Source: Actinomycetes bacterium (lineage in GTDB: Bacteria > Actinomycetota > Acidimicrobiia > Acidimicrobiales > JAAEMS01). Taken from it: DNA of 41,054 nt. Below the pieces are notes generated by a model, which searched no databases, was not told the origin of the DNA, and saw nothing but the letters and a program-made list of their open reading frames with translations. How positions within the stretch are numbered: position 1 is the stretch's first letter; each line of letters begins with the position of its first letter. This document shows, one piece after another, positions 22 through 36,700 of the stretch. The translations under genes and the position numbers were made by a program. Location of the stretch: contig JAAEMS010000220.1 of assembly GCA_024225275.1 (NCBI GenBank), positions 1-41,054 of the forward strand, written 5' to 3'.

Positions 22-729
22 GTGAGTCAGCGGCTACGCATCGTCTCGTTGGTTCCGTCAGCCACCGAAACCCTCATCGAGTGGGGCCAGCCGCCCATCG
101 CGGTCACCCAGTACTGCGAGCAGCCCGGGTACCCCACCGTCGGCGGCACCAAGAACCCAGACCTGGCGGCTGTCGTCGAGCTGGCCCCGGACCTGGTGGT
201 GATGTGCACCACCGAGAATCTTCGTGAACACGCCGAGAAGCTCGAGGGGGCCGGTCTGCGGGTTCATGCCATCGATTTGCACACCCTGGCCGAGAACGGC
301 CCGGAGATGGCCCGCCTGGCCGCCGCGGCCGGCTGTGAGGACCGGGGCCGCGGCCCGTGGCCGGTGGGCGATCCGGTCACCGTCACCACCCGAGCGTTCC
401 TACCGATCTGGCGGAGGCCGTGGATGACCATCTCCGGCCGCACCTACGGGTCGACGCTGCTCGAGTCGATTGGGGTGGGGAACGTGTTCGCCCACCATGC
501 CGATTGGTGGCCCGAGGTCACCATCGACGAGGCCATCGCCCAGCAGCCCGACGTGGTCATCGCCCCGTCAGAGCCGTACGAATTCGAGCCCGAGCACCTG
601 ACCGAATTGGCCGCGGTTGCGCCGGTCGTCGAGATCGACGGTCGCGATCTGTTCTGGTGGGGAGCCCGGGCTCCGGCTGCGATTGAGCGCCTGGGACGAC
701 AGTTGGCGTCAGCCTCCCCCAACGACTGA
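22..729 (+). CDS. TroA/BtuF-like (class III periplasmic-binding-protein fold) substrate-binding domain protein, apparently cytoplasmic (no signal peptide)
   Basis: N-terminal IVSLVPSATETL...PDLVV plus the RAFLPIWRRPWMTISGRTYGSTLLESIGVGNVF block match the BtuF/Fe-siderophore-binding family pattern (PRVFYQVW.DPLYTVGG.SFI.DLIELAGG.NIF). No hydrophobic leader. Convergent 21-nt overlap with the next gene. Confidence 0.6.
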   Translation: MSQRLRIVSLVPSATETLIEWGQPPIAVTQYCEQPGYPTVGGTKNPDLAAVVELAPDLVVMCTTENLREHAEKLEGAGLRVHAIDLHTLAENGPEMARLAAAAGCEDRGRGPWPVGDPVTVTTRAFLPIWRRPWMTISGRTYGSTLLESIGVGNVFAHHADWWPEVTIDEAIAQQPDVVIAPSEPYEFEPEHLTELAAVAPVVEIDGRDLFWWGARAPAAIERLGRQLASASPND

Positions 730-3315
730 GAGCTCGACATCGAGGGGCGAGACGGTGGCGGCCTGGCCGGGGAGACCGAGCTCGGCGATGGGTGCCGGGC
801 GGGCGTGGTGATAGCCCTGGAGTAGGTTGGCTCCGTAGCCCCGGGCCAGACCGGAGCTGACTGCGCACTCGATGCCCTCGACGATCACGTTCAGTCCCAG
901 GGCGTGGACGAGCTCGATCAGGTTGCGCAGAACCACCTGATCGGACTCACGAACCGCAACGTCGGCGACGAACGACTGGTCGATCTTCACCCCATCGACG
1001 GGCAGGGTCCGGAGACGGGCAAAGGATGAATGCCCGGTGCCGAAGTCGTCGATCCATACCTTGACGCCGATGGCGCGAAGGCCTCCCAGCACCTCGGTGG
1101 CCGCCTCCTGGTCGTCCATGATCATCGTCTCGGTGATCTCGACTGCCAGCCGCTCGGGGGCCACCCTGTGGCGCGACAAGGCGTCGCCGACCCACGCCAC
1201 CAGATCACCCTCGTAGAGGTTCCGGACCGACAGGTTGCACGACAGGATGAGGTGCGCGCCCTGGGCTCCCAGGGCGGCGATCTCGCTGAGCGCTTGGTCG
1301 ATGACCCACCGAGTGAGCGCCTTCATCTGGCCGGAGACCTCGGCCAGCTCGATGAACCGGAGGGGAGGGACGAGTCCCAGCTCGGGATGGTTCCACCGGA
1401 TGAGGGCCTCGGTGCCGGCAACCTCGCCGCTGAGACCATCGACGAGGGGCTGGTGGTGCAGTACCAGACCACCGGTCTCGATGGCTGTCTCGAGCTGATT
1501 GACGAGCTGAAGCCGCTCGCGGCCGAACGGGTCGGCCGTGGCGTCGTAGACCTGATGCCCGAGTCTGCCGGTCTTGGCCTGATACATCGCGACGTCGGCC
1601 TGGCGCATGAGCTCGATGGCGCCGTCGGCGTCGGTCGGGTGCATGGCGATCCCCACGCTGGCCCGGACCCGCAGGCGCAGACCGTCATGCATGACCGGTT
1701 CGCGAATCTGGTCACCGAGGTGCTGGGCCCGCCAGCGGGCGTCGTCGACTCGGGTGTCGGTCAGCACGAGGGCGAACTCGTCGCCTCCGAGGCGGGCGAC
1801 GAAATCATGGTCACCCGCCACTGATTCGAGCCGCTCGGCGATGCTGCACAGGAGCTGGTCGCCGATTTCGTGGCCGAGGGCGTCGTTGACCTCTTTGAAG
1901 TCGTCGAGGTCGATCATGAGGATGGCGGTGGATGTGTTCTGCTCGCGGCCCGCGACAATCGTGCGGTCCAGGGTCTCGACGAAGGCGCGACGGTTGGGCA
2001 GACCGGTGAGCGAGTCGATCCGAGCCAGCTCCTCGAGCTTCTGGGCGGCCTCGACCCGCTCGGTGATGTCCAACACATCGACCGTGTAGGACCCGACCTC
2101 GAGCCGCCGGACGGTGGCCTGATAGATGGTGCCACTCTCACCGAGGATCTCTCCTCGAGCGGGCTGATCGTCCGCACCCATCAGGAGCCGGTTGAGGACT
2201 GCCAGCTCCGGACGCTCGGCCACGAGGATCGGAACACAGCGACCGGTCGGGTCCTCGGACCCCGGGAAGAGATCACGACAAGCTGCGTTGGCGGCGTCGA
2301 TACACAAGCCCCGCTCGTTGCGGACGACGAGGAACTGGCCGACCGGGGAGGTGGCGACCAGGTGGCTGAACCGGTCGGCCTCGGCCGAAGCCTGGAGCTC
2401 GCGGGTGCGATCAGTGATGATCCCGACGAACAGGAGGTGGCGATCCTGGCGGTCCCGGGCCGAGCTGATCCGACTCTCGGCCGTCATCCAGGTGCCGTCC
2501 TTGCGCAGCAGCCGAAACGTCGAGGTGTGGTCGGGCTGGGCGTGGTACGACGCCTTGACCTCAGCTAGTACCCGGGCGAGGTCGTCGGGATGGACGATCG
2601 AGGTCCAGAAGCCCGGCTCGAGCCACTGGTCCACCGCGTACCCGAGCATGCGCTCGGCCGCTGGTGAGACCTTCAGGGCTGACAGCTCGCCGGAACGGCT
2701 GGGCACCTCTTCCCACAACACGGCGTCGACACCCAGCGCGATCTGGCGTTGTTTATCGCTGGTTCGACGGGCGGCCATGTTGAGGCGGATCGATCTCATC
2801 ATGAAGATCATGCCCAGCAGCACGAAGACCGTCAGGGTCTGGCCGGTGGAGACCGAGGCATCCTCCCGAGTGAGGCTGGCGATCGCCGCCCCGGTCACCG
2901 CGAGGTAGGTGGTGATGGCCGGGATGGGCCGGAGGGAAGCGGCCCACCCGAGGCTGGCCACACCGATCAACAGGACGATCAGGGGCGGAAGACCCAGGAT
3001 GGCCAGGGTGATGAGGGCGACACCATCGAGGAGGGTGACATGGGGGATCAGGCGGGGTATGGCCTGGGTGGCGAGGTGTGAGCAGAGGTCGACAAGGGCG
3101 GCGATGATCACCAGAGCACCGGTCTCACCCACGCCCCCCTGCACGACACCCAGACTGGCAACCACGAGCACGGTGTGGCGAAGCCACCACATGATGGAGC
3201 ACAACTGGAGCTGGATCCCCTGATCGGCCGAGTCGTGGGCCGCGAGATCTCGCAGGAGAGTCCGCACCGAGTCGGTGCTCTGAAACCGAGACGGTGTGAG
3301 AGACGGCACGATCAA
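709..3315 (-). CDS. Membrane-anchored PAS-GGDEF-EAL protein (diguanylate cyclase/phosphodiesterase, c-di-GMP turnover)
   Basis: N-terminal hydrophobic helices, a PAS-like region, GGDEF motif (RLGGDEFALV), and EAL-domain motifs (EALIRWNHPELGLVPP, DDFGTGHSS, KIDQSFV). The annotated TTG start at 3315 has no RBS; the true start may be an internal Met near 3192. Confidence 0.85.
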   Translation of the reverse strand: MIVPSLTPSRFQSTDSVRTLLRDLAAHDSADQGIQLQLCSIMWWLRHTVLVVASLGVVQGGVGETGALVIIAALVDLCSHLATQAIPRLIPHVTLLDGVALITLAILGLPPLIVLLIGVASLGWAASLRPIPAITTYLAVTGAAIASLTREDASVSTGQTLTVFVLLGMIFMMRSIRLNMAARRTSDKQRQIALGVDAVLWEEVPSRSGELSALKVSPAAERMLGYAVDQWLEPGFWTSIVHPDDLARVLAEVKASYHAQPDHTSTFRLLRKDGTWMTAESRISSARDRQDRHLLFVGIITDRTRELQASAEADRFSHLVATSPVGQFLVVRNERGLCIDAANAACRDLFPGSEDPTGRCVPILVAERPELAVLNRLLMGADDQPARGEILGESGTIYQATVRRLEVGSYTVDVLDITERVEAAQKLEELARIDSLTGLPNRRAFVETLDRTIVAGREQNTSTAILMIDLDDFKEVNDALGHEIGDQLLCSIAERLESVAGDHDFVARLGGDEFALVLTDTRVDDARWRAQHLGDQIREPVMHDGLRLRVRASVGIAMHPTDADGAIELMRQADVAMYQAKTGRLGHQVYDATADPFGRERLQLVNQLETAIETGGLVLHHQPLVDGLSGEVAGTEALIRWNHPELGLVPPLRFIELAEVSGQMKALTRWVIDQALSEIAALGAQGAHLILSCNLSVRNLYEGDLVAWVGDALSRHRVAPERLAVEITETMIMDDQEAATEVLGGLRAIGVKVWIDDFGTGHSSFARLRTLPVDGVKIDQSFVADVAVRESDQVVLRNLIELVHALGLNVIVEGIECAVSSGLARGYGANLLQGYHHARPAPIAELGLPGQAATVSPLDVELSVVGGG

Positions 3316-3398
3316 TCGATCGGATCGAGCCCGTCCTGCCTAGAGTCCCATGAGTCGATTGGACGGGTCCCGATTCCGGGACCACAGAGGGGGACACA

Positions 3399-4472
3399 TT
3401 GGGGGGCGATCCACGGCCACTGGCCGGCGTGCGGGTCATCGAGATCGGGGGTGGGGTCTCGGCTGCCTTCTGCTCCCACCTCCTGGCCGGCCATGGCGCT
3501 CGGGTCGTCCGGGTGGAGGGCCCGGGCGATAGTGTTCTCGATCCTCACCAGGCGACCTATCTCACCGCGGGCACGAGTGGGGTCATCGAAGGGACCGCCG
3601 CACTGGACGAATTGGTGGGACGGGCCGATGTCGTTGTCGATACCCGCCCGCCCGGCTCCCACACTGGCCCTGACTCGATGGCCCTGTGGGAGAGGCGTCC
3701 GGAGCTGGTCGTCACATCGATCACTCCGTTCGGGCTCTCCGGCCCCCACGCGGGACACCAGGCGACCAATATCGTCTCGTTCGCCGCCGGCGGCATCATG
3801 GCCCTGACCGGCGACGCCGACCGACCTCCCCTGCAGACCGGTGGCGATCAGGCCCACATGCTCGGTGGCCTGCACGCCTTCTCGGCCACCACGGCCGCCC
3901 TGTTCGGTGCCCTGGTTCACGGGAGAGGCGACCACATCGAGATCTCGTTGCAGGAGGCGGCCGCCTCCATGCTCGAGCTCTACGCGGCAATGTGGGAGTA
4001 CGACGGGGAGCTCGCGGAGCGGATGGGTAATAGTGTGCGTGCCGAGTGGGGGGTCTACCCGGTGGCCGACGGCTACGCCGGGGTCTGCTGTCTGGGCCGC
4101 CAGATCCCGGCCCTTCTGGACCTGCTCGATACCGATGATCTCGACGAGCAGTTCCTGGACACCACGTATCGGCGCGAGCACAACGACGAGTTGTTGGCCC
4201 ACTTGTTGGGCTTCATGGCTGATCGAACCAAGGACGAGCTGGTGGCACTGAGCCCCACCCATCGGATTCCGTTCGGTGCCGTCCTTACCCCCACCGAGCT
4301 GTTGGCTGACGAGGGACTGGCCCGGCGGGGGTTCTTCGACACGGTCTCCTTCGAGGGGACAGAAGTCAGGGTGCCGGGGCGCCTCGTGCCCGGACTGGCG
4401 TGGGAGCGACCCTCCCATGCCCCGGCCCGCCCGGTCCGCGACATCCTTGCCGAGTGGGGGTCGGCCCGATGA
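3399..4472 (+). CDS. Family III CoA-transferase (CaiB/BaiF fold)
   Basis: N-terminal LAGVRVIEIGGGVSAAFCSHLLAGHGARVVRVE glycine-rich CoA-binding motif. TTG start at 3399 is preceded by a purine-rich RBS (agaggggga). Ends with ATGA overlap into the next gene. Confidence 0.85.
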   Translation: MGGDPRPLAGVRVIEIGGGVSAAFCSHLLAGHGARVVRVEGPGDSVLDPHQATYLTAGTSGVIEGTAALDELVGRADVVVDTRPPGSHTGPDSMALWERRPELVVTSITPFGLSGPHAGHQATNIVSFAAGGIMALTGDADRPPLQTGGDQAHMLGGLHAFSATTAALFGALVHGRGDHIEISLQEAAASMLELYAAMWEYDGELAERMGNSVRAEWGVYPVADGYAGVCCLGRQIPALLDLLDTDDLDEQFLDTTYRREHNDELLAHLLGFMADRTKDELVALSPTHRIPFGAVLTPTELLADEGLARRGFFDTVSFEGTEVRVPGRLVPGLAWERPSHAPARPVRDILAEWGSAR

Positions 4473-5704
4473 AGCAACTGCCGCTGGCCGGGGTTCGCGT
4501 CGTTGACCTCAGCATGATGTGGGCCGGGCCGTACGCCACCAAGATGCTCGCCGAGATGGGGGCCGAGGTGATCAAGGTCGAGTCACCCCGGGCCTGGGAC
4601 AACCTCCGGACCCTGGTGCCTCAGGATCCCGAGCCTGACGACCCGTGGAACTCGGCCTACTACTTCAACGAGTACAACCACCACAAGAAGTCGGTCACCC
4701 TCGACCTGGCCGACGAGCGGGGTCGCCAGGTGTTGTTCCGGCTGCTGGCCCACGCCGATGTGCTCATCGAGAACTACCGGGCCGACGTCATGGACGCTCT
4801 GGGGCTCAGCGAGGATGTGCTCCGGTCCGCCCGCCCCGATCTGGTCCTTGTCTCCATGGCCGGGTTCGGCAAGACCGGGCCTGACCGGGACAATGTCGGC
4901 TTCGGCCCCATCATCGAGATGATGTCAGGGCTCATGTCGCTGACCGGGTATGGCGACGATGGTGTTCCCTACAAGACCGGCATCTCCTACGGCGACCCGG
5001 TGGCAGGGCTCGCCGCCGTCGGGGCGGTGGCGATGGCCCTGATCCAGAGGCGGCGCACAGGCGAGGGGATCACCATTGACCTGGCCCAACGAGAGACCGG
5101 CGCCAAGATGGGGGGTGCGGCCTTCGTCGCGGCGGGCCTCACCGGCTCCGACCCGGTGGTCACCGGCAACCGCAGCCCACGATGGGCACCCCAGGGCTGC
5201 TATCCGGCCCGGGGCGAGGACCAGTGGATCGTCATCTCCTGCACCGACGACTCCGAGTGGGCCGCGTGTGCCGAAGTGGTGGGTCGGCCTGACCTGGCCG
5301 CCCTGTCGCCCGAGGAGCGACTCGAGCGCCACGACGAGCTCGACGAGGCACTGGGCCGGTGGAGTGCGCCCATCGACCCGCGAGTGGCAGTCGACGAGTT
5401 GGAGGCGGTAGGGGTTCCGGCGGGTCGGGTTCTCGACATGCGCACGATCAAGGACGACCCCCACCTCCACGCCCGGGGCTTCTGGGTGAGGATCCCGAAT
5501 CCCAAGATGCGGCCATACCGCAAACACGGAATCGTGTGGCGACTGGTCGAGGCCAACCCACAGCTGACCCGACGGGCCCCGTGGTTCGGTGAGCACAACC
5601 AGGAAATCCTGGGTGATCTGGTCGGGCTCACCGCCGACGAGCTCGACTTGTTGACCTCAGAAGGGATCATTGCCGATGCGCCGTTCGGTGCCTCGGCTGG
5701 GTGA
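4469..5704 (+). CDS. Family III CoA-transferase (CaiB/BaiF fold), second tandem copy
   Basis: MKQLPLAGVRVVDLSMMWAGPYATKMLAEMGAEVIKVESP motif. ATG at 4469 overlaps the upstream stop (ATGA), implying translational coupling. The track ORF start at 4400 is a spurious 5' extension. Confidence 0.85.
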   Translation: MKQLPLAGVRVVDLSMMWAGPYATKMLAEMGAEVIKVESPRAWDNLRTLVPQDPEPDDPWNSAYYFNEYNHHKKSVTLDLADERGRQVLFRLLAHADVLIENYRADVMDALGLSEDVLRSARPDLVLVSMAGFGKTGPDRDNVGFGPIIEMMSGLMSLTGYGDDGVPYKTGISYGDPVAGLAAVGAVAMALIQRRRTGEGITIDLAQRETGAKMGGAAFVAAGLTGSDPVVTGNRSPRWAPQGCYPARGEDQWIVISCTDDSEWAACAEVVGRPDLAALSPEERLERHDELDEALGRWSAPIDPRVAVDELEAVGVPAGRVLDMRTIKDDPHLHARGFWVRIPNPKMRPYRKHGIVWRLVEANPQLTRRAPWFGEHNQEILGDLVGLTADELDLLTSEGIIADAPFGASAG

Positions 5705-7140
5705 GTCGCCGGCGCACTAGGTTTCCCGACATGAGTGAGGACTTCGATCGGGCCCTGGAGGCCGTGCTGTTGGGTTCGGTGCCCGGAGTCACCGGTCTGA
5801 TCGAGGCCGAACGGCTCAGTGGTGGTGCCAGTCAGGAGACCTACCGTCTCCGGGTCGAGACCGACGACGGGCCGGCTGTGCTGGCCATGCGCCGGGCCCC
5901 CGGCGGCGAGGCCCCCGAAGACCTGATGGGCCGGCCGGGGCTGGAGGTCGAAGCCGAGCTCATGCGGATTGCCGGCGACCATGGTGTTCCGGAACCCGTC
6001 GTCCACCACGTTCTCCAGCCCGCCGACGGCATCGGGCCCGGCTTCATCATGGAATGGCTGGAAGGAGAGGCACTGGGCGGACGAATTGTCCGTTCCCCCG
6101 ATCTGGCCGACGTCCGTCCCCACCTGGCCGGGGAGTACGGCCGCATTCTCGCCCGGATCCACGCCATCGACCTCGACGCCACCGGGCTGCGGGCCAAGCT
6201 CACCGAGAAGTCGACGGTGGAGTTCATCCACGAGATGTGGGACCGCTACAAGCAGTACCCCACGCCCCAACCAATGATCGACTATGCCGCCCGCTGGTTG
6301 CTCGATCACCTCCCCCCTGAGCGGCCCCTCACCCTCGTGCACAACGACTTCCGCAACGGGAACGTGATGGTCGACCCCGACGGGGTGGTGGCGGTCCTCG
6401 ACTGGGAGGCCGCCCACATCGGTGACCCGGGCCGCGACCTCGGTTGGCTGTGCACCGCGTCGTGGCGTTTCGGGAGCGACCTGCCGGTAGGGGGGTTCGG
6501 GACCCGCGACCAGCTCCTCGCCGGCTACGAGGCCGAGTCGGGTGTTGGGGTGGACCCCGAGGAGGTGCGTTTCTGGGAAGTGTTCGGCTCGTTCTGGTGG
6601 GCAGTGGGCTGCATCGGGATGGCCGAGCACTACCGCACCGGGCCCGATCAGTCGGTCGAGCGGCCGGCGATCGGTCGCCGCAGTTCGGAGTGCCAGGTCG
6701 ACTGTGTGAATCTGATCATCCCCGGACCGGTGGAGCTGTTGAGCCCGACCCCGGTCGACGATCGTTCCGACATGCCTCGGGCCGACGAGCTGTTGGTCAG
6801 CGTCCGTGACTTCCTGCGCGACGACGTGATGACCGAAACCCGGGGCCGCACGAACTTCCTGGCCCGGGTGGCCGCCAACTCGCTCGACATCCTGTTGAGG
6901 GAGGGGGCGGTCGGGCCCCAGCTGAGTGCCCTCGAGGCCACGATGCTGGCCTCCCTGCTCGATGATCCGCCCCCCTCCGCTTCGGTCTGGGAACTGCGCT
7001 GGCAGCTCGTCGATCAGCTCCGCGACGCCACCATGCCACTCGACCAGTCGGGCCTCACCGACTATCTGCGTACGGCGGTGGTGAACCAGGTGGCAATCGA
7101 TCAACCCCGTTATCCGGGACTGGCCACCGCCCTGGATTGA
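5701..7140 (+). CDS. Phosphotransferase of the APH/choline-kinase family with a roughly 150-aa C-terminal extension
   Basis: Catalytic-loop and Mg-binding motifs LVHNDFRNGNVMVD...VLDWEAAHIGDPGRDLGW. GTG at 5701 overlaps the upstream stop (GTGA); an alternative ATG lies at 5731. Confidence 0.75.
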   Translation: MSRRRTRFPDMSEDFDRALEAVLLGSVPGVTGLIEAERLSGGASQETYRLRVETDDGPAVLAMRRAPGGEAPEDLMGRPGLEVEAELMRIAGDHGVPEPVVHHVLQPADGIGPGFIMEWLEGEALGGRIVRSPDLADVRPHLAGEYGRILARIHAIDLDATGLRAKLTEKSTVEFIHEMWDRYKQYPTPQPMIDYAARWLLDHLPPERPLTLVHNDFRNGNVMVDPDGVVAVLDWEAAHIGDPGRDLGWLCTASWRFGSDLPVGGFGTRDQLLAGYEAESGVGVDPEEVRFWEVFGSFWWAVGCIGMAEHYRTGPDQSVERPAIGRRSSECQVDCVNLIIPGPVELLSPTPVDDRSDMPRADELLVSVRDFLRDDVMTETRGRTNFLARVAANSLDILLREGAVGPQLSALEATMLASLLDDPPPSASVWELRWQLVDQLRDATMPLDQSGLTDYLRTAVVNQVAIDQPRYPGLATALD

Positions 7141-7275
7141 CCCAGATCCCTCCCACGAGCTTCCTCAAACAACAGATCGGAATTCCGACGGGAACCGGGA
7201 ACTGGCGATGAACCAGCGGCGTTGGATTCAATAGGACGTGGATGCCGTAGCAGCGGCAAGAGGGAGGCAGGACAG

Positions 7276-7899
7276 ATGGACGACGTGATCTCGGCGTCCT
7301 TCCAGCTGCCCACCCTCGTGTTCACGATCCTCTTCGCTCTCGTTGCCTGCCTCTGGGTGCTGGGTGTGGTCGGGTTCTTCGAAGTCGACCTCGACCTCGA
7401 CCTCGATGGTGGCGACGGCGTGCTCGACGGCGCCCTCCACTCCTTGGGGCTCGCCGGCGTACCCATGGTGGTCATCCTGACTCTGGTCGCGGCCGGTGGG
7501 TGGTTCACCTCGGTGGTGCTCCAGGTCACCGTTCTCGACGGTCGCTCGGGTGCCACCCTTGTTCTGCTCGGCCTGGTCACCCTCGTGGTGGCGTGGCTGG
7601 TCGCCTTCATGTTCGCGGCCGCCCTTGCCCGACCCCTGGGACGAATGATGCGGGTCGCCACCGCCCCCTCGGCCGCCGAGCTGGTGGGCCGGGTCGGCAC
7701 CATTCGGTCGGGTCGGGTTGACACCCGTTTCGGCTACGCCGACGTCGATTGGGCTGACGGGGGTTCGTCTCGTGTCGAGGTGCGCCTCGCTGATACCAAC
7801 GACTCCTTCGGCCCCGGTGACCGGGCTCTCCTCGTCGACTGGGACGTCGACTCCGGTCTATACCTCATCAGCCCTCCGCCCTCCGATCTCGATCTCTGA
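7276..7899 (+). CDS. NfeD-like membrane protein (short form: N-terminal TM helices plus C-terminal OB-fold barrel)
   Basis: ATG at 7276 sits 8 nt after a strong RBS, AGGGAGG (7261-7267). Two or three hydrophobic helices are followed by a beta-rich C-terminus (GRVGTIRSGRVDTRFGYADVDW...VEVRLADTN...GDRALLVDWDVDSGLYLI), typical of NfeD/YqiJ/YuaF partners of SPFH proteins. There is an acidic DLDLDLDGGDG linker. Confidence 0.7.
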   Translation: MDDVISASFQLPTLVFTILFALVACLWVLGVVGFFEVDLDLDLDGGDGVLDGALHSLGLAGVPMVVILTLVAAGGWFTSVVLQVTVLDGRSGATLVLLGLVTLVVAWLVAFMFAAALARPLGRMMRVATAPSAAELVGRVGTIRSGRVDTRFGYADVDWADGGSSRVEVRLADTNDSFGPGDRALLVDWDVDSGLYLISPPPSDLDL

Positions 7900-7934
7900 T
7901 CTCTCGTTCTTCGCCAGCCAGACAGGAGCCAACC

Positions 7935-9950
7935 GTGGAAAGCATCATCTCGGCAGCAGTGGTGGTGATCGTCGTACTGCTCGTCGCCCTCCTGGGTATC
8001 GGGCTGATGGTCACCCGCCTCTTCCGCAAGGTCCGCCAGGGTGAGGCCCTGGTCGTGTCGAAGTGGCGTGAGGTGGTCGTGACCTTCACCGGCATGATCG
8101 TCATCCCGGTGATCCACAAGGCCGAGTGGGTGGACATCTCGGTCAAGAACCTCCAGATCGAGCGTCGGGGCAAGGACGGTCTGATCTGTGCCGACAACGT
8201 CCGGGCCGATATCACGGTCGAGTTCTACGTGAAGGTCGACCGCACCGCCGAGGCGGTCATCAAGGTGGCCCAGCAGGTGGGTGCCGACCGGGCGTCTGAC
8301 CCCGAGACCCTGCGCGAGCTCTTCGCCGCCAAGTTCTCCGAGGCCCTCAAGACCGCCGGCAAGCAGTTCGAGTTCGAGTCGCTCTACACCGACCGCCAGC
8401 AGTTCCGCGACGCCATCATCGAGATCATCGGCCAGGACCTCAACGGGTATGTCCTCGAGGATGTCGCCATCGACTATCTCGAGCAGACCCCCATGGACGC
8501 TCTCGATCCCACCAACATTCTCGACGCCGACGGCATCAGGAAGATCACCGAGCGGACTGCCGATCAGCACATCCGCACCAACGACGCCGAGGAACGTGAG
8601 CGGGAGGAGACCTTCCGCCGCACCACCGATGCCGACAAGGCCGTGTTCGAGATGGAACGCGACCGGGCCGAGGCCGAGGCCCGCCAGCAGCAGGAGATCC
8701 GTACCGTCCAGGCTCGCTCCGCGGCCGAGGCCCGAGTGGTCGAGGAGACCTCCCGCGAAGAGGCCGAGTCGGCCCGCATCTCCACCGAGCAGGGGCTGGG
8801 TGTGGCCGACCAGAACAAGGACCGCGAGATCGCCCTGGCCGACGCCAACCGGGAGCGGGTCATCGCCGTACAGACCGAAGAGATCGAGCGCGACCGATTG
8901 CTCGCCGTCGTGGGGCGCGAAACTGCGGTCGCCGAGGCCGGCAAGGAGAAGGAATCGCGGGCCCGTGAGCTGTCCGAGGTGGAGAGGAGCCGGGTCGAGG
9001 CCGACAAGGCCGTGGCTGAACAGGAAGAAGCCATCGCCACCCTGCGGGTTGTCGAGGACGCCCAACGCACCGCCACCGCTGAGGTGAAGATGGCCGAGGG
9101 TTCCGCCCAGGCTGCCTTCGTCTCCCGGGTGCAGGAAGCCGAGGCCGACAAGGCCGCCGCCGGCAGCGAAGCCGAGCGTCGCACCATCCTCGCCCGGGCC
9201 GAGGCCGAGGCATCGGACCAGGAGATGGCTGCCGCCAAGCGCCGGGCCGAAGGGGCCCAGGCCGAAGCAGCGGCGGGTGGCCTCGCTGAAGTCGAGGTCG
9301 AGACCAGTCGGGCTGAAGCCATTCGGCAGGTGGGTACGGCCGAGGTCGACATCGAGCGCCAGCGGGCCGAGGCCATCCGGGACACCGGCGTGGCCGAGGG
9401 TGACGCCACCAAGGCCCGTCTCGCCGGCGAAGGTGAGGGTCTCGAGGCCAAGGCCACCGGTGTGGGGGCTATGACCGAAGCCGGTCGTGGTCACGAGGAG
9501 TTTCGCCTCGGGCTCGACGCCAACAAGGAGATTGCCTTGGCCGGCATCGACGCCAAGGCCGACGTGGCCCGGTCGGCGGCAGCCGCTCTGGGCGAGTCGT
9601 TGTCCAACGCCGACATGCAGATCGTGTCCGACGAGGGCATCGTCGAACGTATCCTGTCGGCGGCCGGGCATGGTCAGGCCATCGACGGGTTCGCTACCAA
9701 CGGCGACACCGCTCGTCAGCTCCTGTCGCCCTACCTCGAAGGCGACGGCAACTTCGTGGCCGACGTGGCTGCCGGTCTCGGCGGCCTGGGTGCTGCCGGT
9801 CTCCGTGACCTCACGATCGCCGACTTCATCGGCCGTCTCGGCCGCCGGGTCGACGACGGGGGAGCGCTCGACCGTCTGCGGGCAGCCATCGACGACGCGG
9901 GTATCGCCGACCTGCCTGTCGGTGACCTGCTCGACGACGGGGCCAAATAG
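7935..9950 (+). CDS. Flotillin-like SPFH/band-7 protein (YqiK/FloT type)
   Basis: GTG start sits 9 nt after AGGAG. N-terminal TM helix, SPFH core (GEALVVSKWREVVVTFTGMIVIPVIHKAEWVDISVKNLQIERRGKDGLICADNVRADITVEFYVKV), then a roughly 300-aa E/A/R-rich coiled-coil flotillin tail. Confidence 0.9.
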   Translation: MESIISAAVVVIVVLLVALLGIGLMVTRLFRKVRQGEALVVSKWREVVVTFTGMIVIPVIHKAEWVDISVKNLQIERRGKDGLICADNVRADITVEFYVKVDRTAEAVIKVAQQVGADRASDPETLRELFAAKFSEALKTAGKQFEFESLYTDRQQFRDAIIEIIGQDLNGYVLEDVAIDYLEQTPMDALDPTNILDADGIRKITERTADQHIRTNDAEEREREETFRRTTDADKAVFEMERDRAEAEARQQQEIRTVQARSAAEARVVEETSREEAESARISTEQGLGVADQNKDREIALADANRERVIAVQTEEIERDRLLAVVGRETAVAEAGKEKESRARELSEVERSRVEADKAVAEQEEAIATLRVVEDAQRTATAEVKMAEGSAQAAFVSRVQEAEADKAAAGSEAERRTILARAEAEASDQEMAAAKRRAEGAQAEAAAGGLAEVEVETSRAEAIRQVGTAEVDIERQRAEAIRDTGVAEGDATKARLAGEGEGLEAKATGVGAMTEAGRGHEEFRLGLDANKEIALAGIDAKADVARSAAAALGESLSNADMQIVSDEGIVERILSAAGHGQAIDGFATNGDTARQLLSPYLEGDGNFVADVAAGLGGLGAAGLRDLTIADFIGRLGRRVDDGGALDRLRAAIDDAGIADLPVGDLLDDGAK

Positions 9951-9952
9951 CG

Positions 9953-12900
9953 GTGACGGACACGTCCCCGCCGCCTGCGGGGAGCCCGCCGTCAGAGCTT
10001 GGCGCCCAGAGCGACGACACCGCTGGGCCCAGCGAGGCGGACGAGCTGAGGGGGGGTTCCTATGAGCTTCTCCGCCGCCGGCTGGCCAGCCAGGCCCGCC
10101 AGTTGGTCAGTGGCGCCGAGGCCGTCGACAGTCGTCGGATCGCCACCTTCTCGTCCAGCCGGCTGAAGCTGGTCGGGTCCGACCGATTGAGCACCGACGT
10201 CATCGGCCAGGCTCGCGACATCGTGCGCATCGGCGACCTGCTCCTTTTCGGCTACAACGTGGGTCTCGACCTGGCCAGCGTCGAACCCGAGCACGTCTTC
10301 GCCCTGTACCGGGCCGGTGGCGCCGGCGGGCGACCCCATCCCGAGCTCGTGCCCGTGGACCCCTCCGATCCCGCCTACTTCCTGGGCGATCCGGTGTTCC
10401 GGGAGGAATTTGCCAAGCTGTACCGGTTCTACGGCAAGGCCCGATTCATCGACCTGAGGGCGTCGACCACCCAGTTGCTGGCCGCCTTCCAGGTGGGGGA
10501 CCGCATCAGCGATGTCGTAGTCCTGCGCTGGGCGGTGGCCGACGACGGTTCGGTTGCGTTCATCGACAGCCGCGGTGACCGCGACTACACCTGGCCGCCG
10601 GCCCATGACTTCATGTGGACCGTGTGTGGCCGTGAGGACCAACGAGCGGGCGCCCACCCCACAGTGGTGGTCGACAACGAGGTATTCGTCGGGTTCCGCA
10701 ACGGCCGGCTCCAGCTCCGCACCGAAGACGGCAGCCCCGGCGGCCGCGTCGTGGTCGACGAGGAGGTGGAGGCACCCGGCCAGTCGTTGGCCGATGTCGA
10801 GGTGGCCTGGTTCGGCCTGGGCGATGTCTTGTTGCTCCGGGTCTCTCTCTACGGCGAGGCCGAACGCTTCTATGTGTTCGGTCGCCGCAGCGGTTCGGGT
10901 ACACGGGTCGATGCCATCGGTGCCGCTTGTCGGATCCTGCCCGGCGAAGACGGCGTGGTCTTCCCCGGTGGGTATCACCTGGCCTCCACCGGTACCCGGG
11001 TCTTCGAGGTCGATGCCCAGGAGATGGTCTTCGAGGAGGCCGTCGTCTCCCCGAACGGTGAGGACGTCCTGTACGTCTTCCACCGGCCCGAGAATGGCGA
11101 CTATCTGCTGTTGCCCTACAACCTCGTGCGCAAAGAGATCACCCAGGTCATCCCCTGTCATGGCTTCGGGGCGTTCGGCGATGGGTCGATGGTGTTGTTC
11201 CGGGGCGGGCCCGACGACAGTGCTGCCGCCCGCGCTCATCCGGTCCAGTGGTGGGAGACACCGTTCACCGATCCTGACATCGAGCAGGTGGTGGGCGACG
11301 ACCGGTGGATCGTCACCGTCGGCAACCCCACCCTCGTTCGAGGTCTTGCCGATGTGTACGACCTCGGTCGGTTGATTGATCAGGCCGAGAGTTCGGAGCG
11401 CACCTGGGAGGCAATCATCGTCGCCGCCCGACGGGCTCTGGACACCCACCTGTGGTTCGGCGACGACGAGGCCGGCGGTCTTCACGACCAGCTTCGGGGC
11501 CTGCTCGGCACCGCGGGCCAGATTGTCGACGAGTACGCCAGGGTCCGCCGTCTGCGGGGTGAGGCGGTCCGCCGGACCGACGAGGCCCGAATGGGAATCC
11601 GCCGCACCATCGACTCCGCCGGCCAGGCCGGCGAACCGGGTGCCGTGGTCAGCGCCCTGGGTGAACTTCAGAGGGCGCGGGGCGAGACCTCGCTGTTGAG
11701 CGACGTGCCCGAGGTCAGCGACGCCGACGTGAGTGCCCTCATCGACGAGCTCGACGGTGCCCTGGCCCAGCTGGCCGACCGGGCTGTGTCGGTCCTGGAC
11801 TCCGATACGGCCTTCGCCCGCTTCACCGATCAACTCGACCTCCTCGTGACCGAGGGCACGGCCGCCCCCACCACAGCAGAGGTCGACTCGGTGGGGGAGC
11901 GGCTCACCACCCTGCGAACTGACTTGGGTGCCGTGGTCGACGCCGTCACATCGCTCGATGCCGGTGACCCCACCGTGCGGACCCGGATCGTGCGTCGGGT
12001 CGCCGACACGACCGCAGCCGCCAACCGAGCCCAAGCCGTATTGGCCGGTCACCGGCGGGGTCTCTCCGAGAGCGAATCGGCCGAGGCCTTCGACGCCGAG
12101 CTGGCCCTGGTCGAGCAGACCCTGGCCGGCGTGGTCGTCTCGCTGGAAACCCCCGAGGACTGCGACGCCGAGCTGGCCCGCCTCCTCGTGAACGTGGAAC
12201 GCATCGAGGCCAGGTACGCCGACGATCCTGAGCGGGTGGCCAGCGTGGCTGAGCAGCGTGAACGGGTCGCCGAGATCATCGGCAACCGACGCACTGAGCT
12301 CGCCGACGCCCGCGCCCGGCGAGCTGCCCGCATCACCGAAGCCGCCAACCGGCTACTGGCCACCATCGGACGACGGGCGGCCGAGGTCGACGACGATGCC
12401 GCGGTGGCTGGGTTCTTCGCCGCCGACCAGATGGTCTCGCGGGTCCGGTCGTTGGCTGATGACCTCGATGAGCTCGGCGAGCGGGGGTTGGCCCAGGAGA
12501 TCCGCACGGAGCTGGCCGCAACCGCCGAGGAGGCTGCCCGCCAGGTTCGGGACCGCAAGGCGCTGACCGCCGATGACGGGTCGATCGACTTCGGGGGATT
12601 CCGGTTCGCGCCGAACCATCAGCCCTTCGACGTGGTGCTCAGCCCGGCCGGTGACGGCCGTATCGGGGCCGCGGTGACCGGTACCGAGTACCGGGCCGAT
12701 GTGACCGAGCGGCTCGGCGAGTTCGCCGATCTGCTCGACCAGAGCGTTCCCTCGGAGACACCCACGATCTACCGGGGTGAGTATCTGGCCTGGGTCGTGT
12801 TGGCCGAGGCCGAGAAGGCCGATGGAGTGGCCGAGCTGATCTCGCGGGCTGCGGCCCCCGATCGGATGGTCGACCATTGCCGGGCCGCGGCCGAGCGTCG

Positions 12901-14872
12901 CCACCTCGACGGCTACCAGCGGGGTGTCCACGACGACGACGCCGCCCGGATCCTGAGCTCGGTGCTGCCTCACAGCGCGGCGGAGCCCCGCCTGCGTCAT
13001 CCGGGTTGGGTACGGGCTCAGGCCCGGATGTGGCTGGCCGAGCTGGGCCCCGACCACGTCGATCAGCTCGCCGCCCGAATCGGTGGAGCCTGCACTGCGA
13101 GGCAGCGGCTCGGGGCCAGCGGCCCTCTCGATGACGTCGTCGCCGCCCTAGAGGCCGATGCCCCCCGTTCGGCCCCCTGGTACCCGGGCGACGGCCACTG
13201 GTCAGCGGTGCTCGGCTATCTCGTCGATCAGTTCGAAGATGGTCCGGTCCCCCTCGTTGCCGCCAGCACTGCTCGCACACTGGTGACCCGGCTCAACGAA
13301 CGTTTGGGCCGGGAGGGAGTGGCCGATCTCGAGGCGTCCATGACCGGTTCCCCCGATCCGCTGGCTGCCGCCCGAGCCTGGGTGGCTGCCTACGTCGAGG
13401 GCGACGGGTCTCCGGAGTCGTTGGCACTGGACATCGACGAGGCCGCCGGTCTGCTGGCGGCGCCCCACGTCGAGACCGTCGACGCCACCCACCCCGGTGG
13501 GATCGCCATCACCGGTCTCGCCGGTGATCACCCCCGGATCGAAGGAGGCCAGCTCCTGGTCCGTCTCGACGAGCTGGCCGAACGAGTCGGCCGCCATCAC
13601 CGCACCATGGAGGACCGTTGGCCCCGCTACGCCGAGGCTCGCCGCCGGGTGATCGCCGAGGTCAGGGCCCAGGTCGATGTCGACGAACACCGGCCCCGGG
13701 TGATGGCGGGTTTCGTTCGCAATCGGCTGATCGACGAGGCCCTCCTGCCCCTGGTCGGGGCCAACCTCGGGCGCCAGCTCGGAACCGTCGACCAGACCGA
13801 GCTGGCCCGGTCGGGCCTGATGGTCATGATCAGCCCTCCCGGCTACGGCAAGACCACCCTCATGTCGTGGGTGGCGGACCGCCTCGGCCTGCTCATGGTC
13901 AAGGTGAACGGCCCGGCTCTGGGACAGGACACCACGAGCCTGGACCCCGCGGCCGCTCCCAACGCCGCGGCTCGGGCCGAAGTCGAGAAGATCAATCTGG
14001 CCTTCCGGTTCGGGCGGAACGTGATGCTCTTCCTCGATGATGTGCAGTACACCGCGCCGGAGCTGCTCTCCCGCTTCATCCCGCTCGCCGACGCCACCCG
14101 CCGCATCGAGGGTGTGATCGATGGCGAGCCCACGACCTTCGACCTCCGGGGCAAGCGGTTCTGCGTGGTCATGGCCGGCAACCCCTACACGACCGGTGGC
14201 CGCTTCGAGCTGCCTGACATGCTCGTGAACCGATCCGACGTCCACAACCTTGGTGACGTCGCCGATTCCCATCGGGTCGCCTTCGAGCTGTCCTATCTCG
14301 AGAACAGTCTGACGGCGTGCCCGACCTTGGCCCCCCATGCGGCCAAGCTGGCCGACGACATCGAGCTGGTGCTGGCGATGGCCGACGGTCGTCGGGCGGT
14401 CGCCAGCGACGGTCTGAACCATCGGTGGGACTCATCAGAGCTTGGCGACGCGGTGCGGACCATCCGCCACCTGCGTCGAGCCCAGGAGGTTCTGCTCCTG
14501 GTGAACGAGTCCTATGTGCGCTCGGCGGCGATGCGCGACGAGGACCGGGTCGTTCCTCCCTTCCTACTTCAGGGGTCGTACCGGAACATGGCCCGGCTGG
14601 CCTCGCGGATCGTGCCGGTGATGACCGACGACGAGCTCGATGTTGCCGTCGACGAGCACTATCGGGCCGAAGCCCAGACCCTCACCGAGAAGGCCGAGGA
14701 GAACCTGTTGGCCCTCGCCGCCAAACGAGATCGGCTGGCAGACGCCGACCAGGTGAGGTGGGACGCCATCACCGAGCGGTGGGCCGGCATGGCCGCCGCG
14801 GCTGATCCGGCGGGCCGGATCGCTGAAGCGATCGATCGCCTGGCCGGCCGGATGGAGTCTGATACCCGGTAG
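9953..14872 (+). CDS. Giant (1639 aa) cytoplasmic protein with one C-terminal MoxR/AAA_5-type AAA+ ATPase module; N-terminal roughly 1290 aa of unknown function
   Basis: GTG start 2 nt after the flotillin stop. Single P-loop ISPPGYGKTT (about aa 1296), Walker B MLFLDDVQY, then IEGVIDGEPTTFDL and FCVVMAGNPYTTGGRFELPDMLVNRSD. These align well to the MoxR pattern [53 protein letters not shown]. No TM segments and no second P-loop. The N-terminal region is beta-rich, followed by a long A/E/R/D-rich helical region. Confidence 0.8.
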   Translation: MTDTSPPPAGSPPSELGAQSDDTAGPSEADELRGGSYELLRRRLASQARQLVSGAEAVDSRRIATFSSSRLKLVGSDRLSTDVIGQARDIVRIGDLLLFGYNVGLDLASVEPEHVFALYRAGGAGGRPHPELVPVDPSDPAYFLGDPVFREEFAKLYRFYGKARFIDLRASTTQLLAAFQVGDRISDVVVLRWAVADDGSVAFIDSRGDRDYTWPPAHDFMWTVCGREDQRAGAHPTVVVDNEVFVGFRNGRLQLRTEDGSPGGRVVVDEEVEAPGQSLADVEVAWFGLGDVLLLRVSLYGEAERFYVFGRRSGSGTRVDAIGAACRILPGEDGVVFPGGYHLASTGTRVFEVDAQEMVFEEAVVSPNGEDVLYVFHRPENGDYLLLPYNLVRKEITQVIPCHGFGAFGDGSMVLFRGGPDDSAAARAHPVQWWETPFTDPDIEQVVGDDRWIVTVGNPTLVRGLADVYDLGRLIDQAESSERTWEAIIVAARRALDTHLWFGDDEAGGLHDQLRGLLGTAGQIVDEYARVRRLRGEAVRRTDEARMGIRRTIDSAGQAGEPGAVVSALGELQRARGETSLLSDVPEVSDADVSALIDELDGALAQLADRAVSVLDSDTAFARFTDQLDLLVTEGTAAPTTAEVDSVGERLTTLRTDLGAVVDAVTSLDAGDPTVRTRIVRRVADTTAAANRAQAVLAGHRRGLSESESAEAFDAELALVEQTLAGVVVSLETPEDCDAELARLLVNVERIEARYADDPERVASVAEQRERVAEIIGNRRTELADARARRAARITEAANRLLATIGRRAAEVDDDAAVAGFFAADQMVSRVRSLADDLDELGERGLAQEIRTELAATAEEAARQVRDRKALTADDGSIDFGGFRFAPNHQPFDVVLSPAGDGRIGAAVTGTEYRADVTERLGEFADLLDQSVPSETPTIYRGEYLAWVVLAEAEKADGVAELISRAAAPDRMVDHCRAAAERRHLDGYQRGVHDDDAARILSSVLPHSAAEPRLRHPGWVRAQARMWLAELGPDHVDQLAARIGGACTARQRLGASGPLDDVVAALEADAPRSAPWYPGDGHWSAVLGYLVDQFEDGPVPLVAASTARTLVTRLNERLGREGVADLEASMTGSPDPLAAARAWVAAYVEGDGSPESLALDIDEAAGLLAAPHVETVDATHPGGIAITGLAGDHPRIEGGQLLVRLDELAERVGRHHRTMEDRWPRYAEARRRVIAEVRAQVDVDEHRPRVMAGFVRNRLIDEALLPLVGANLGRQLGTVDQTELARSGLMVMISPPGYGKTTLMSWVADRLGLLMVKVNGPALGQDTTSLDPAAAPNAAARAEVEKINLAFRFGRNVMLFLDDVQYTAPELLSRFIPLADATRRIEGVIDGEPTTFDLRGKRFCVVMAGNPYTTGGRFELPDMLVNRSDVHNLGDVADSHRVAFELSYLENSLTACPTLAPHAAKLADDIELVLAMADGRRAVASDGLNHRWDSSELGDAVRTIRHLRRAQEVLLLVNESYVRSAAMRDEDRVVPPFLLQGSYRNMARLASRIVPVMTDDELDVAVDEHYRAEAQTLTEKAEENLLALAAKRDRLADADQVRWDAITERWAGMAAAADPAGRIAEAIDRLAGRMESDTR

Positions 14873-14896
14873 CTCGCCGTCGGCCATGATGGTCCC

Positions 14897-15835
14897 ATGA
14901 GTACTCTCATCACCGGGGGAACCGGGTTCATCGGGGCCGAGATCGTACGGATGCTGCTGGACCGGGGTGAGGGGCCGATCCATGTGGCCCACCGGTCGGG
15001 CAATTTCGGTCGGCTGACCGGAGTCGAGGACCAGGTCGAGCTCCACCAACTCGATCTGGCCGACCTCGGCGCCGTTGATCGGGTGATCGCGGAGGTGGCT
15101 CCCCGACGGCTGATCCACTTCGGTGCCATCCTCACCGGGCCGGGCGAACAGGACCCCCAGACCCTCCTCCAAGCCAACGCAGTCGGATTCATCCGCACCA
15201 TCGAGGCGGCACGCCTGGCTGGCACCGAGCAGATGATCTTCGCCAGCAGCATCGGTACCTACGGCCGTGACCTCGGCGACGGACCGGTCACCGACCTCTC
15301 GCTCCAACGCCCCAACAGCGTCTACGGAGTAACGAAGGTGTTCGGCGAGAACCTGGGCGCCTACTACCGAACCAAGTACGGCCTCGACTTTCGGGGGCTC
15401 CGGTATCCGTCGATCGTGGGACCGGGGGTCACGACCTGGAGCCTGGCCCAGTACACGAGCTGGATGATCGAGAAGGCCGCCATGGGTGAGCCGTTCGCGG
15501 TGTGGACCGCACCCGAGGCCGTCATCCCCATCCTCTACTACAAGGATGCAGCGCGGGCCGCCCTCGATCTCGGGGCCGCGCCGGCGGAGAGCATCCGGGC
15601 CATCAACTACCTGGTGAACGGTCCGGTACCCACCCCCAACGCCGGCGAGATGGCCGAGGCGGTGCGGGCGAAGGTGGCGGGGGCCGAGATCACCTTCGAG
15701 CCCGACGAGGCCGCGGCAGCAGCTCTGGCCCGGGAGCTGCACATCGACGATGCCGTTGCCCGCCGTGAATGGGGCTGGGAGCCGGCCTTCGATCTCGACG
15801 CCATGATCGACGACGTCATCGCCGAAGTCGGCTGA
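14897..15835 (+). CDS. NAD-dependent epimerase/dehydratase (extended SDR)
   Basis: N-terminal LITGGTGFIGAEIV Rossmann motif; YxxxK region around SVYGVTKVFGE. Confidence 0.85.
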   Translation: MSTLITGGTGFIGAEIVRMLLDRGEGPIHVAHRSGNFGRLTGVEDQVELHQLDLADLGAVDRVIAEVAPRRLIHFGAILTGPGEQDPQTLLQANAVGFIRTIEAARLAGTEQMIFASSIGTYGRDLGDGPVTDLSLQRPNSVYGVTKVFGENLGAYYRTKYGLDFRGLRYPSIVGPGVTTWSLAQYTSWMIEKAAMGEPFAVWTAPEAVIPILYYKDAARAALDLGAAPAESIRAINYLVNGPVPTPNAGEMAEAVRAKVAGAEITFEPDEAAAAALARELHIDDAVARREWGWEPAFDLDAMIDDVIAEVG

Positions 15836-20406: not shown

Positions 20407-21516
20407 GTGTCGGGCAGACTGGGGGCCATGACCAACGCGGCGACCACCAGCTCGGCCCTGGGTCTGGCCGTGGCCGCGGGGGTACCGGTGCTGCTCTGGG
20501 GGGCACCGGGTACCGGCAAGAGCTCGGCGGTGCGAGCCATGGCCGAATCCATCGGCTGGCCGTGCGAGGTGGTCATCGCCTCGATCCGTGAGCCCACCGA
20601 CTTCGCCGGGCTCCCGGTTGTGGTCGACGATGGCATCCGTTTCGCCCCGCCCACCTGGGCCACCAGGCTGGCCGAGTCCGAGCGCGGGCTTCTGTTCCTC
20701 GACGAGATCTCCACCGCGCCACCCGCCGTCCAGGCGGCCCTCCTTCGGGTGGTGCTGGAACGGGTCGTGGGCGATCTGGATCTGCCCGACAGCATCGCCG
20801 TGGTTGCGGCCGCCAACCCGCCTGACCAGGCGGCCGATGGCTGGGACCTGTCAGCCCCCCTGGCCAATCGCTTCTGCCACCTCGACTGGGACGTCGATCC
20901 GGCGGCGGTGGCCGAGGGTCTGGCCGGCGGATTCCCCGAGCCCACCGTTCCCCAGCTGGCCGGTGAATGGGAGAAGCGCATCACCACCGCCCGGGCCCAA
21001 GTGGCTGCGTTCCTGGTGGTGCGGCCCGGGCTGGTGTCCGCACCGCCCACCGAACGGGCCGCTGCGGGCCGAGCCTGGCCCAGTCCCCGATCCTGGGAGA
21101 TGACGGCCCGCCTCCTGGGCGCCGCCCAGGTCGCCGACTCCGACGGCCCGGTTCGTGCCGCCTTGGTCACCGGATGTGTCGGCCAGGGGGCGGGTATCGA
21201 GTTCCTGTCCTGGCTCGACGAGCTCGACCTGCCCGATCCCGAGGCGGTGCTGGCCGACCCGGGCTCGTTCGTCCTGCCCGAGCGGGGTGACCGGGCCTAC
21301 GCGGTGCTCACCTCGGTGGCCGCCGCGGTGGCGGCCGACACCACGCCCGAACGGTGGGCCGCCGGTTGGGTGGTACTGGGCCAGGCCGGCGAAACCGCTC
21401 CCGATGTTGCCGCGGTGGCTGCCCGCATCCTGGCCCGGTGCCGGCCCGAGGGTGCCTCGGCCCCACCCCAGGCCGCGGCCTTCGTACCCCTCCTAGAGCA
21501 GGCCGGACTGCTCTGA
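20407..21516 (+). CDS. MoxR-family AAA+ ATPase (AAA_5)
   Basis: Walker A LLWGAPGTGKSS, PTD motif (REPTDFAGLP), Walker B LLFLDEISTA, QAALLRVVLER, sensor ANP (VVAAANPPD) and LANRF. GTG start at 20407; alternative ATG at 20428. Confidence 0.85.
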   Translation: MSGRLGAMTNAATTSSALGLAVAAGVPVLLWGAPGTGKSSAVRAMAESIGWPCEVVIASIREPTDFAGLPVVVDDGIRFAPPTWATRLAESERGLLFLDEISTAPPAVQAALLRVVLERVVGDLDLPDSIAVVAAANPPDQAADGWDLSAPLANRFCHLDWDVDPAAVAEGLAGGFPEPTVPQLAGEWEKRITTARAQVAAFLVVRPGLVSAPPTERAAAGRAWPSPRSWEMTARLLGAAQVADSDGPVRAALVTGCVGQGAGIEFLSWLDELDLPDPEAVLADPGSFVLPERGDRAYAVLTSVAAAVAADTTPERWAAGWVVLGQAGETAPDVAAVAARILARCRPEGASAPPQAAAFVPLLEQAGLL

Positions 21517-21520
21517 CCGG

Positions 21521-35514: not shown

Positions 35515-35551
35515 CAAGACCAAGATCACACCGACACAAGGGACACACCAC

Positions 35552-36700
<1,149 letters not shown>

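Follow-up and report, generated by a model that had tools for sequence, protein, structure and literature searches.

A three-gene operon encoding a YqiJ/DUF1449-like protein, a flotillin and a giant DUF3686 AAA+ ATPase in an Acidimicrobiales contig: an abbreviated member of a described, experimentally uncharacterised gene set

In a comparative-genomic study of envelope-stress systems, Ravi et al. (2024; mSystems 9:e00847-23, PMC11237479; preprint 2020) reported a set of genes for a YqiJ/YuaF protein with three transmembrane segments (3TM), a band-7/coiled-coil/flotillin protein and a "novel AAA+ ATPase" with a beta-propeller and a coiled coil, and placed the operon in the PspA envelope-stress network. 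The set was described as a long form attached to CesT/Tir-PspA and, in a single sentence, as a widespread "abbreviated" form; a phospholipase D gene is present in some proteobacterial versions (PMC11237479). Here we describe a three-gene operon at positions 7276-14872 of a 41,054-nucleotide stretch of DNA (contig JAAEMS010000220.1 of GenBank assembly GCA_024225275.1; hereafter the window) from an actinomycete of the order Acidimicrobiales, which encodes the same three proteins in the same gene order and with the same domain plan. The gene order is also identical in the Dokdonia donghaensis context (ANH61663.1) listed in Table S3 of PMC11237479. No PspA or CesT/Tir gene was found in the 41-kb window; the locus therefore represents the abbreviated form, without the CesT/Tir-PspA pair of the full-length one. 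Thus, the trio of the window is a typical abbreviated member, i.e., an ordinary copy of an already described kind, and the proposal of the initial annotation that it is an undescribed system is superseded by the published gene set. That description is purely computational and the kind is experimentally uncharacterised, so that the accompanying remark that no operon like this had been characterised holds in the experimental sense.

The published description and the window are linked by a Hymenobacter plasmid, in which genes for a CesT/Tir protein (PF22550, E = 5.8e-53), PspA, a DUF1449 protein, a flotillin and a "DNA repair ATPase" stand in one row; this ATPase aligns with the giant protein of the window over 94% of its length at 33% identity. 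In the Pseudomonas fluorescens megaplasmid pQBR103 (locus L084, 125-3179), the trio directly follows a cluster of DUF2491, DUF350, DUF1190 and glutathionylspermidine-synthase-like genes of the yjfKLMC type, and this polyamine-related type of cluster is the second PspA-linked context discussed in PMC11237479. Elsewhere in the literature, no papers were found on DUF3686, on PF12458 or on flotillin together with "DNA repair ATPase," and the ATPase is unmentioned in a survey of Pseudomonas aeruginosa SPFH proteins (PMC13086221) and in the Psp survey of Popp et al. (PMC9239133).

Two other kinds of described systems resemble the operon in part. Like the window, E. coli yqiJ-yqiK and B. subtilis yuaF-floT combine a small multi-transmembrane protein that has a C-terminal OB-like domain with a flotillin encoded after it, but the E. 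coli pair has no third gene and is followed by sibD/ibsD. The flotillin of the window is 118 aa longer than YqiK and lacks the detectable Pfam Flot domain that YqiK has, and its small protein, unlike YqiJ, fails the Pfam models YqiJ_N and YqiJ_OB. In HflK/HflC-FtsH and the prohibitin-m-AAA protease pair, as in the window, an SPFH scaffold is coupled, genetically or physically, to an AAA+ ATPase at a membrane. FtsH is a membrane-embedded protease, and its periplasmic part is inside a periplasmic cage. Unlike FtsH, the ATPase of the window is a soluble protein that lacks a protease domain, and most of the flotillin encoded with it is predicted to be cytoplasmic. SPFH proteins are known to form cages, for example HflK/C around FtsH, where the cage works with an AAA+ machine (PMC12330512), and flotillin 1/2, flotillin cages having been solved as well (PMC11260169). 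The MoxR-class ATPases (CbbQ, NorQ and RavA) and the AAA modules of dynein and midasin are also among the nearest known systems.

The association of the three genes is strict. In a scan of one genome per species (185,579 species genomes), at least 562 relatives of the giant gene were found, and 80 loci were kept, 74 of which had sufficient upstream DNA; with six loci from plasmid collections, these gave 80 loci for the analysis of synteny. A full-length flotillin ortholog (38-71% identity) was encoded directly upstream on the same strand in 74/74 genome loci, and such a flotillin gene preceded the giant gene in all 80 loci from at least 7 phyla. The small protein was found by tblastn upstream of the flotillin in 63/74 genome loci. 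The genome loci span Actinomycetota, Myxococcota, beta- and gammaproteobacteria, Planctomycetota and one metagenome-assembled genome (MAG) labelled Clostridia, and the closest named relatives of the window copy belong to Ilumatobacter (Acidimicrobiia). The plasmid-collection loci with the same trio are those of Pseudomonas (pQBR103), Hymenobacter, Deinococcus, Proteus mirabilis, Vibrio campbellii and Halomonas; megaplasmids that carry copies of the trio belong to Pseudomonas, Deinococcus, Hymenobacter and Streptomyces. Measured between the flotillin stop codon and the ATPase start codon, the distance was -4 nt (i.e., a stop/start overlap) in about 17 loci, <20 nt in many others and up to about 560 nt, and translational coupling is therefore common and not obligatory. 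The synteny and the overlaps bear out the suggestion that the trio is a conserved functional unit. Flotillin and ATPase divergences were correlated (r = 0.82-0.92), which is weak evidence because any two genes of the same genomes track phylogeny. No fourth gene that is universally conserved beside the trio was found.

In the window, the trio consists of three co-oriented open reading frames on the forward strand, at 7276-7899 (a small inner-membrane, YqiJ/YuaF-like protein of 207 aa, identified from its translation, hydropathy and orthologs), 7935-9950 (a YqiK-type flotillin of 671 aa with a GTG start) and 9953-14872 (a giant soluble protein of 1639 aa with a GTG start that combines a propeller-like domain, a helical stalk and an AAA+ ATPase). 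The DNA has a high GC content (about 68%), and GC at third codon positions is 0.83-0.84 in both large genes. The stretch GAGGGAGG precedes the ATG at 7276 of the small gene, and ortholog alignments begin at its residue 1. The frame of the giant gene opens at 9926 and contains no other ATG, GTG or TTG before the first conserved residues (Y37, L40 and R41), so that the GTG at 9953 is the sole usable start; orthologs of the giant protein align from about residue 21-35. Direct reading of the junction at 9948-9955 (TAG at 9948-9950, 2 nt, GTG at 9953-9955) reproduced the gene layout and the 2-nt gap as first annotated. The view that this gap leaves no room for an independent ribosome-binding site goes too far, as such a site may be located within the preceding gene. 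The sequence before the GTG shows no good Shine-Dalgarno motif, however, and the proposed coupling is plausible via termination-reinitiation.

The giant protein belongs to a recognised family. The Pfam model PF12458 (DUF3686) matched aa 51-499 with 435.8 bits against a cut-off of 25 (E = 1.9e-130; profile positions 2-447 of 448), PF25472 (DUF7902) matched aa 620-702 (E = 2.7e-15) and PF00004 (AAA), the sole Pfam AAA model matched, covered aa 1290-1370 (E = 1.7e-5). The identical Pfam set is present in more than 1500 full-length homologs (about 1600-1700 aa), which NCBI names "DNA repair ATPase," and at 50% identity the family falls into 522 clusters among 1.84 billion representatives. A protein that NCBI assigns to an uncultured Actinomycetes MAG is 100% identical to the giant protein. 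Hence the ATPase is not the only recognisable part of the protein, as was assumed at first, and the protein is no orphan beyond that module. A sequence search against solved structures returned matches at the level of the P-loop alone (RuvB and NVL, E about 0.006). By a hydropathy scan, the small protein has three hydrophobic segments and the flotillin a single N-terminal one; the giant protein has none and was therefore correctly described as soluble.

Two AlphaFold2 models of the giant protein, each built with 50 homologs and confident (mean predicted local distance difference test scores of 87.6 and 92.8), were used for the domain map. A disordered segment (aa 1-30) and an N-terminal helix (aa 35-66) are followed by an all-beta, propeller-like domain of about 27 strands (aa about 72-435), and helix and beta domain make up the DUF3686 region (10103-11449 on the forward strand, aa 51-499). 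In a Foldseek search with the beta domain, the top matches were all beta-propellers (E = 1e-5 to 1e-4), yet with TM-scores of no more than 0.36. A long helical or coiled-coil stalk that includes DUF7902 (11303-12562, forward strand, aa about 451-870) has helices of 25-58 residues in both models. The segment at 12584-13780 (forward strand), which has no family match and was seen in the C-terminal model, comprises a small unit of beta structure (aa about 878-916), then a middle domain made of helices (aa about 919-1200) and, leading toward the ATPase, linker helices (aa about 1205-1290). The AAA+ core and lid, assigned from motifs and the model, occupy 13820-14392 (forward strand, aa about 1290-1480), and a helical C-terminus extends up to aa 1639. 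No DNA-binding or nuclease domain was found in the protein with Pfam.

The AAA+ core contains a Walker A motif (SPPGYGKTT, 1294-1302), a Walker B motif (LFLDDVQ, 1359-1365), a beta-hairpin (1384-1397) ahead of the sensor-1 strand, the sensor-1 residue N1410 and a candidate arginine finger, R1427. It is the best conserved region of the giant protein in 80 orthologs, more than 95% of which, from many phyla, keep the Walker A sequence SPPGYGKTT, LDDVQ of Walker B, N1410, an NRxD motif with R1427 and LQGSYR. Given this conservation of catalytic motifs, the giant ATPase looks catalytically competent. Its initial assignment to the MoxR class stands in part. In structure comparisons of the model, the fold of the ATPase core was nearest to MoxR-type and dynein-type AAA+ proteins, and AAA_5 was among the precomputed matches of some homologs. 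The window protein, however, matched neither the AAA_3 nor the AAA_5 model of Pfam, its Walker B motif has DD and not DE, and no VWA gene was found in the operon or conserved nearby; a canonical MoxR-VWA system was rejected. A separate, canonical-looking MoxR ATPase (AAA_5, bpMoxR, AAA_3), unrelated to the flotillin operon, is encoded at 20407-21516 (forward strand) of the window, immediately followed by a gene for a DUF2201 VWA-like protein or putative metallopeptidase (21521-22714, forward strand), and this pair at 20407-22714 illustrates the make-up of a true MoxR pair in the same genome.

From its N-terminus onwards, the flotillin comprises a membrane anchor, the SPFH/Band_7 domain, a long coiled coil rich in E and A and a C-terminal region. 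Its hydrophobic segment comprises aa 1-33, with R/K residues after the anchor, and Pfam PF01145 (Band_7) matched aa 32-179 with 44.1 bits, above the cut-off of 23.6. The protein is 29% identical to E. coli YqiK over 475 aa (E = 2e-36), in a BLAST alignment that ends at residue 463; the early identification as a flotillin is thus sound. The Flotillin domain PF15975 did not match the window protein at E <= 0.01, whereas YqiK scores E = 6.4e-41; Ravi et al. (PMC11237479) labelled the C-terminal region of the orthologs as flotillin. Conservation among 75 orthologs is highest in the SPFH domain. The Proteus trio has a flotillin that shares 37% identity with that of the window but only 29% with E. 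coli YqiK, although Proteus and E. coli both belong to the Enterobacterales. This points to a separate line of flotillins that moves together with the ATPase.

The small protein was originally labelled NfeD-like. It starts with a transmembrane helix and an acidic loop (DLDLDLD), continues with two further transmembrane helices and an RPLGRMMR stretch after the third of them, and ends in a C-terminal beta (OB-like) domain, for which the consensus of the orthologs is FVGRxCxVRTxxVxxxFGQAEV...VRxxx...L..G..ALI..YD. None of the Pfam models NfeD, YqiJ_N and YqiJ_OB matched it at E <= 5, and five orthologs gave nothing usable with Pfam (one matched YqiJ_N at E = 3.9); E. coli YqiJ itself scores 1e-15 and 1.7e-14 in the YqiJ models. 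A profile of 15 orthologs was aligned end to end by hhalign with the Hymenobacter protein that NCBI names "DUF1449 family protein" (probability 99.7%) and, more weakly, with E. coli YqiJ over 128 collinear columns (probability 72%, E = 3.5e-5). Thus, the NfeD label finds no backing in Pfam, and by profile comparison only, the small protein is YqiJ/DUF1449-like, with a multi-transmembrane, C-terminal OB-like architecture and a gene located just upstream of an SPFH gene.

We propose, with a probability of roughly 0.55, that the ATPase is recruited to the flotillin via its propeller and stalk and, driven by ATP, assembles, opens or dismantles the flotillin assembly or acts on its clients under membrane stress. 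The trio would be a membrane-proximal machine that faces the cytoplasm, as the positive-inside rule and the lack of a transmembrane segment in the ATPase predict that the ATPase lies entirely in the cytoplasm, together with the body of the flotillin and the OB-like domain of the small protein. Anchored by its one N-terminal helix, the flotillin would oligomerise into a scaffold or cage at the cytoplasmic side of the membrane, and the small protein may bind this scaffold with its OB-like domain. The ATPase, which is probably a ring oligomer, would dock on the flotillin assembly by its propeller and coiled-coil arm, and ATP hydrolysis would assemble, open or dismantle the scaffold, or extract client proteins held in it, as one part of how the cell responds to stress on its membrane or envelope. 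The trio may act together with a PspA homolog whose gene is located elsewhere in the genome. Ravi et al. (2024; PMC11237479) predicted a function that is in line with this proposal.

Several observations weigh against this proposal. PspA, CesT/Tir and yjfKLMC genes are absent within 8 kb of the 80 genome loci, and with none of PspA and CesT/Tir in the window either, the link to Psp is indirect for the abbreviated form. The C-terminal tail of the flotillin is poorly conserved and so offers no obvious docking motif for the ATPase. The rate of hydrolysis may be atypical, given that DD takes the place of the usual DE in Walker B. The patchy distribution and the megaplasmid copies also fit an accessory or conflict role, and no experimental or functional study of the ATPase or its family was found in the literature.

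A more specific version of the proposal, which we advance tentatively, is that cytoplasmic flotillin cages have a dedicated remodeler in the DUF3686 ATPase, which, driven by ATP, would open, close or recycle the scaffold on demand. If so, it would be a bacterial counterpart, by analogy, of Vps4 on ESCRT-III or of FtsH inside HflK/C. We know of no energy-consuming factor for bacterial flotillins, and such a remodeler would be the first known energy input into the dynamics of SPFH microdomains. For the assembly, opening and turnover of SPFH/flotillin scaffolds, the operon gives a genetically defined candidate factor; the ATPase is always beside its own flotillin (80/80 loci), and its carriers include tractable Streptomyces, Proteus mirabilis, Vibrio campbellii and the Pseudomonas plasmid pQBR103. 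To the published one-paragraph description, the present analysis adds a quantified synteny, a model-based domain map, the catalytic motifs including the DD of Walker B, and evidence against the name "DNA repair ATPase."

Alternatively, the ATPase could be a quality-control unfoldase or extractase that acts on damaged or misassembled membrane proteins, with the flotillin only as its landing site, i.e., an HflK/C-FtsH system minus the protease. The plan of a propeller, which would bind substrates, a stalk and an AAA+ ring resembles that of adaptor-bearing unfoldases, and partnerships between SPFH proteins and AAA+ proteases are established (PMC12330512). We nevertheless consider this alternative unlikely: no protease gene is linked to the operon, the beta2-alpha2 loop (GPALG...) has no aromatic pore-loop motif, and the best fold matches are remodelers of the MoxR and dynein types, which are not known to unfold proteins by threading.

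An anti-phage or conflict system, in which the ATPase senses infection and the flotillin and the 3TM protein form a membrane-disrupting or abortive-infection effector, is distinctly improbable. The patchy distribution (at least 562 matches among the species genomes scanned), the megaplasmid copies in Pseudomonas, Deinococcus, Hymenobacter and Streptomyces and the movement of the trio as a self-contained block among unrelated neighbourhoods would all fit such a system, as would the phospholipase D gene of some proteobacterial versions (PMC11237479). A few immediate neighbours match PADLOC models (MADS 3, AriA 3 and DrmD 1), and there is a faint, P-loop-limited match of the ATPase to IetA/IteA (E = 4e-4 to 7e-4). 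This match, however, spans about 40 residues around Walker A with 19.7 bits against a cut-off of 510, and no protein of the trio has a meaningful score in PADLOC-DB v2 (IetA, E = 6.6e-4 over 39 P-loop residues; RmrT, E = 5.9e-3). The core of the system has no nuclease, protease or toxin domain, its recurrent linkage is to the stress proteins PspA and CesT/Tir, and its 135 nearest neighbours are mostly regulators or metabolic genes and not defence genes. In the window, the flanks are likewise metabolic (CoA-transferases, a kinase, an epimerase and an acyl-CoA dehydrogenase).

It is very improbable that the giant protein is a DNA repair ATPase and its flotillin neighbourhood incidental. The Pfam description ("ATPase involved in DNA repair"), the NCBI product name and a 35-residue P-loop match to RuvB (E = 0.006) speak for that function, whereas the protein has no DNA-binding or nuclease domain, its gene is always linked to two membrane-protein genes and no paper was found that supports the name. 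"DNA repair ATPase" is probably a misnomer spread through annotation pipelines, unsupported by the domains, the structural neighbours, the genomic context and the literature searched. A chance adjacency of three genes that work independently, for which nothing speaks except the occurrence of the yqiJ-yqiK pair without the ATPase in E. coli, has a practically negligible probability and is refuted by the synteny in 80/80 loci of at least 7 phyla, the same order and strand and the frequent stop/start overlaps.

The 135 nearest neighbours of the trio, from 72 loci, are heterogeneous; PucR-like regulators (15) are followed in frequency by TrkA_N proteins (potassium transport, NAD-binding; 7/135), and the rest belong to assorted metabolism. 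In 21 loci, all of Streptomyces, a divergent gene upstream of the trio encodes a PucR-type regulator with GGDEF_2 and HTH_30 domains (e.g., locus L002, 1173-2234, reverse strand), and this protein is a candidate for a dedicated regulator of the trio in that genus. A PAS-GGDEF-EAL gene is located at 709-3315 (reverse strand) of the window, about 4 kb upstream of the trio, and its relative in Ilumatobacter coccineus (40% identity in the GGDEF-EAL part) is directly upstream of the trio on the same strand. A GGDEF gene also directly precedes the trio of a Deinococcus plasmid, and the positions of such neighbours outside the window include 1939-4905 of locus L001, 38-1429 of L003 and 1532-3013 of L086; with a neighbour of this type in only 6/87 loci, this may be lineage synteny rather than a link to cyclic di-GMP. 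In a Polyangiaceae MAG (L074, 3582-5568), two Uma2-family (restriction-endonuclease-like) genes lie between the small gene and the flotillin gene and disrupt the tight spacing.

In a scan of 6900-15400 of the window, no promoter-like site was found, and terminator-like sites were exclusively within coding sequence. A gene for an NAD-dependent epimerase on the same strand begins 24 nt past the ATPase stop codon (14873-14897) and, given this spacing, may share a transcript with the trio here; in the other loci the epimerase gene is not conserved beside the trio. In addition, the window contains four genes with family III CoA-transferase domains (3399-4472, 4400-5704, 27363-29849 and 35069-36700), one of them of double length, two APH-family kinase genes (5701-7140 and 29881-30906), one with DUF6285, and genes for an acyl-CoA dehydrogenase and a class III aminotransferase. 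Judged by their domains, these genes around the operon look like repeated cassettes of acyl-CoA metabolism.

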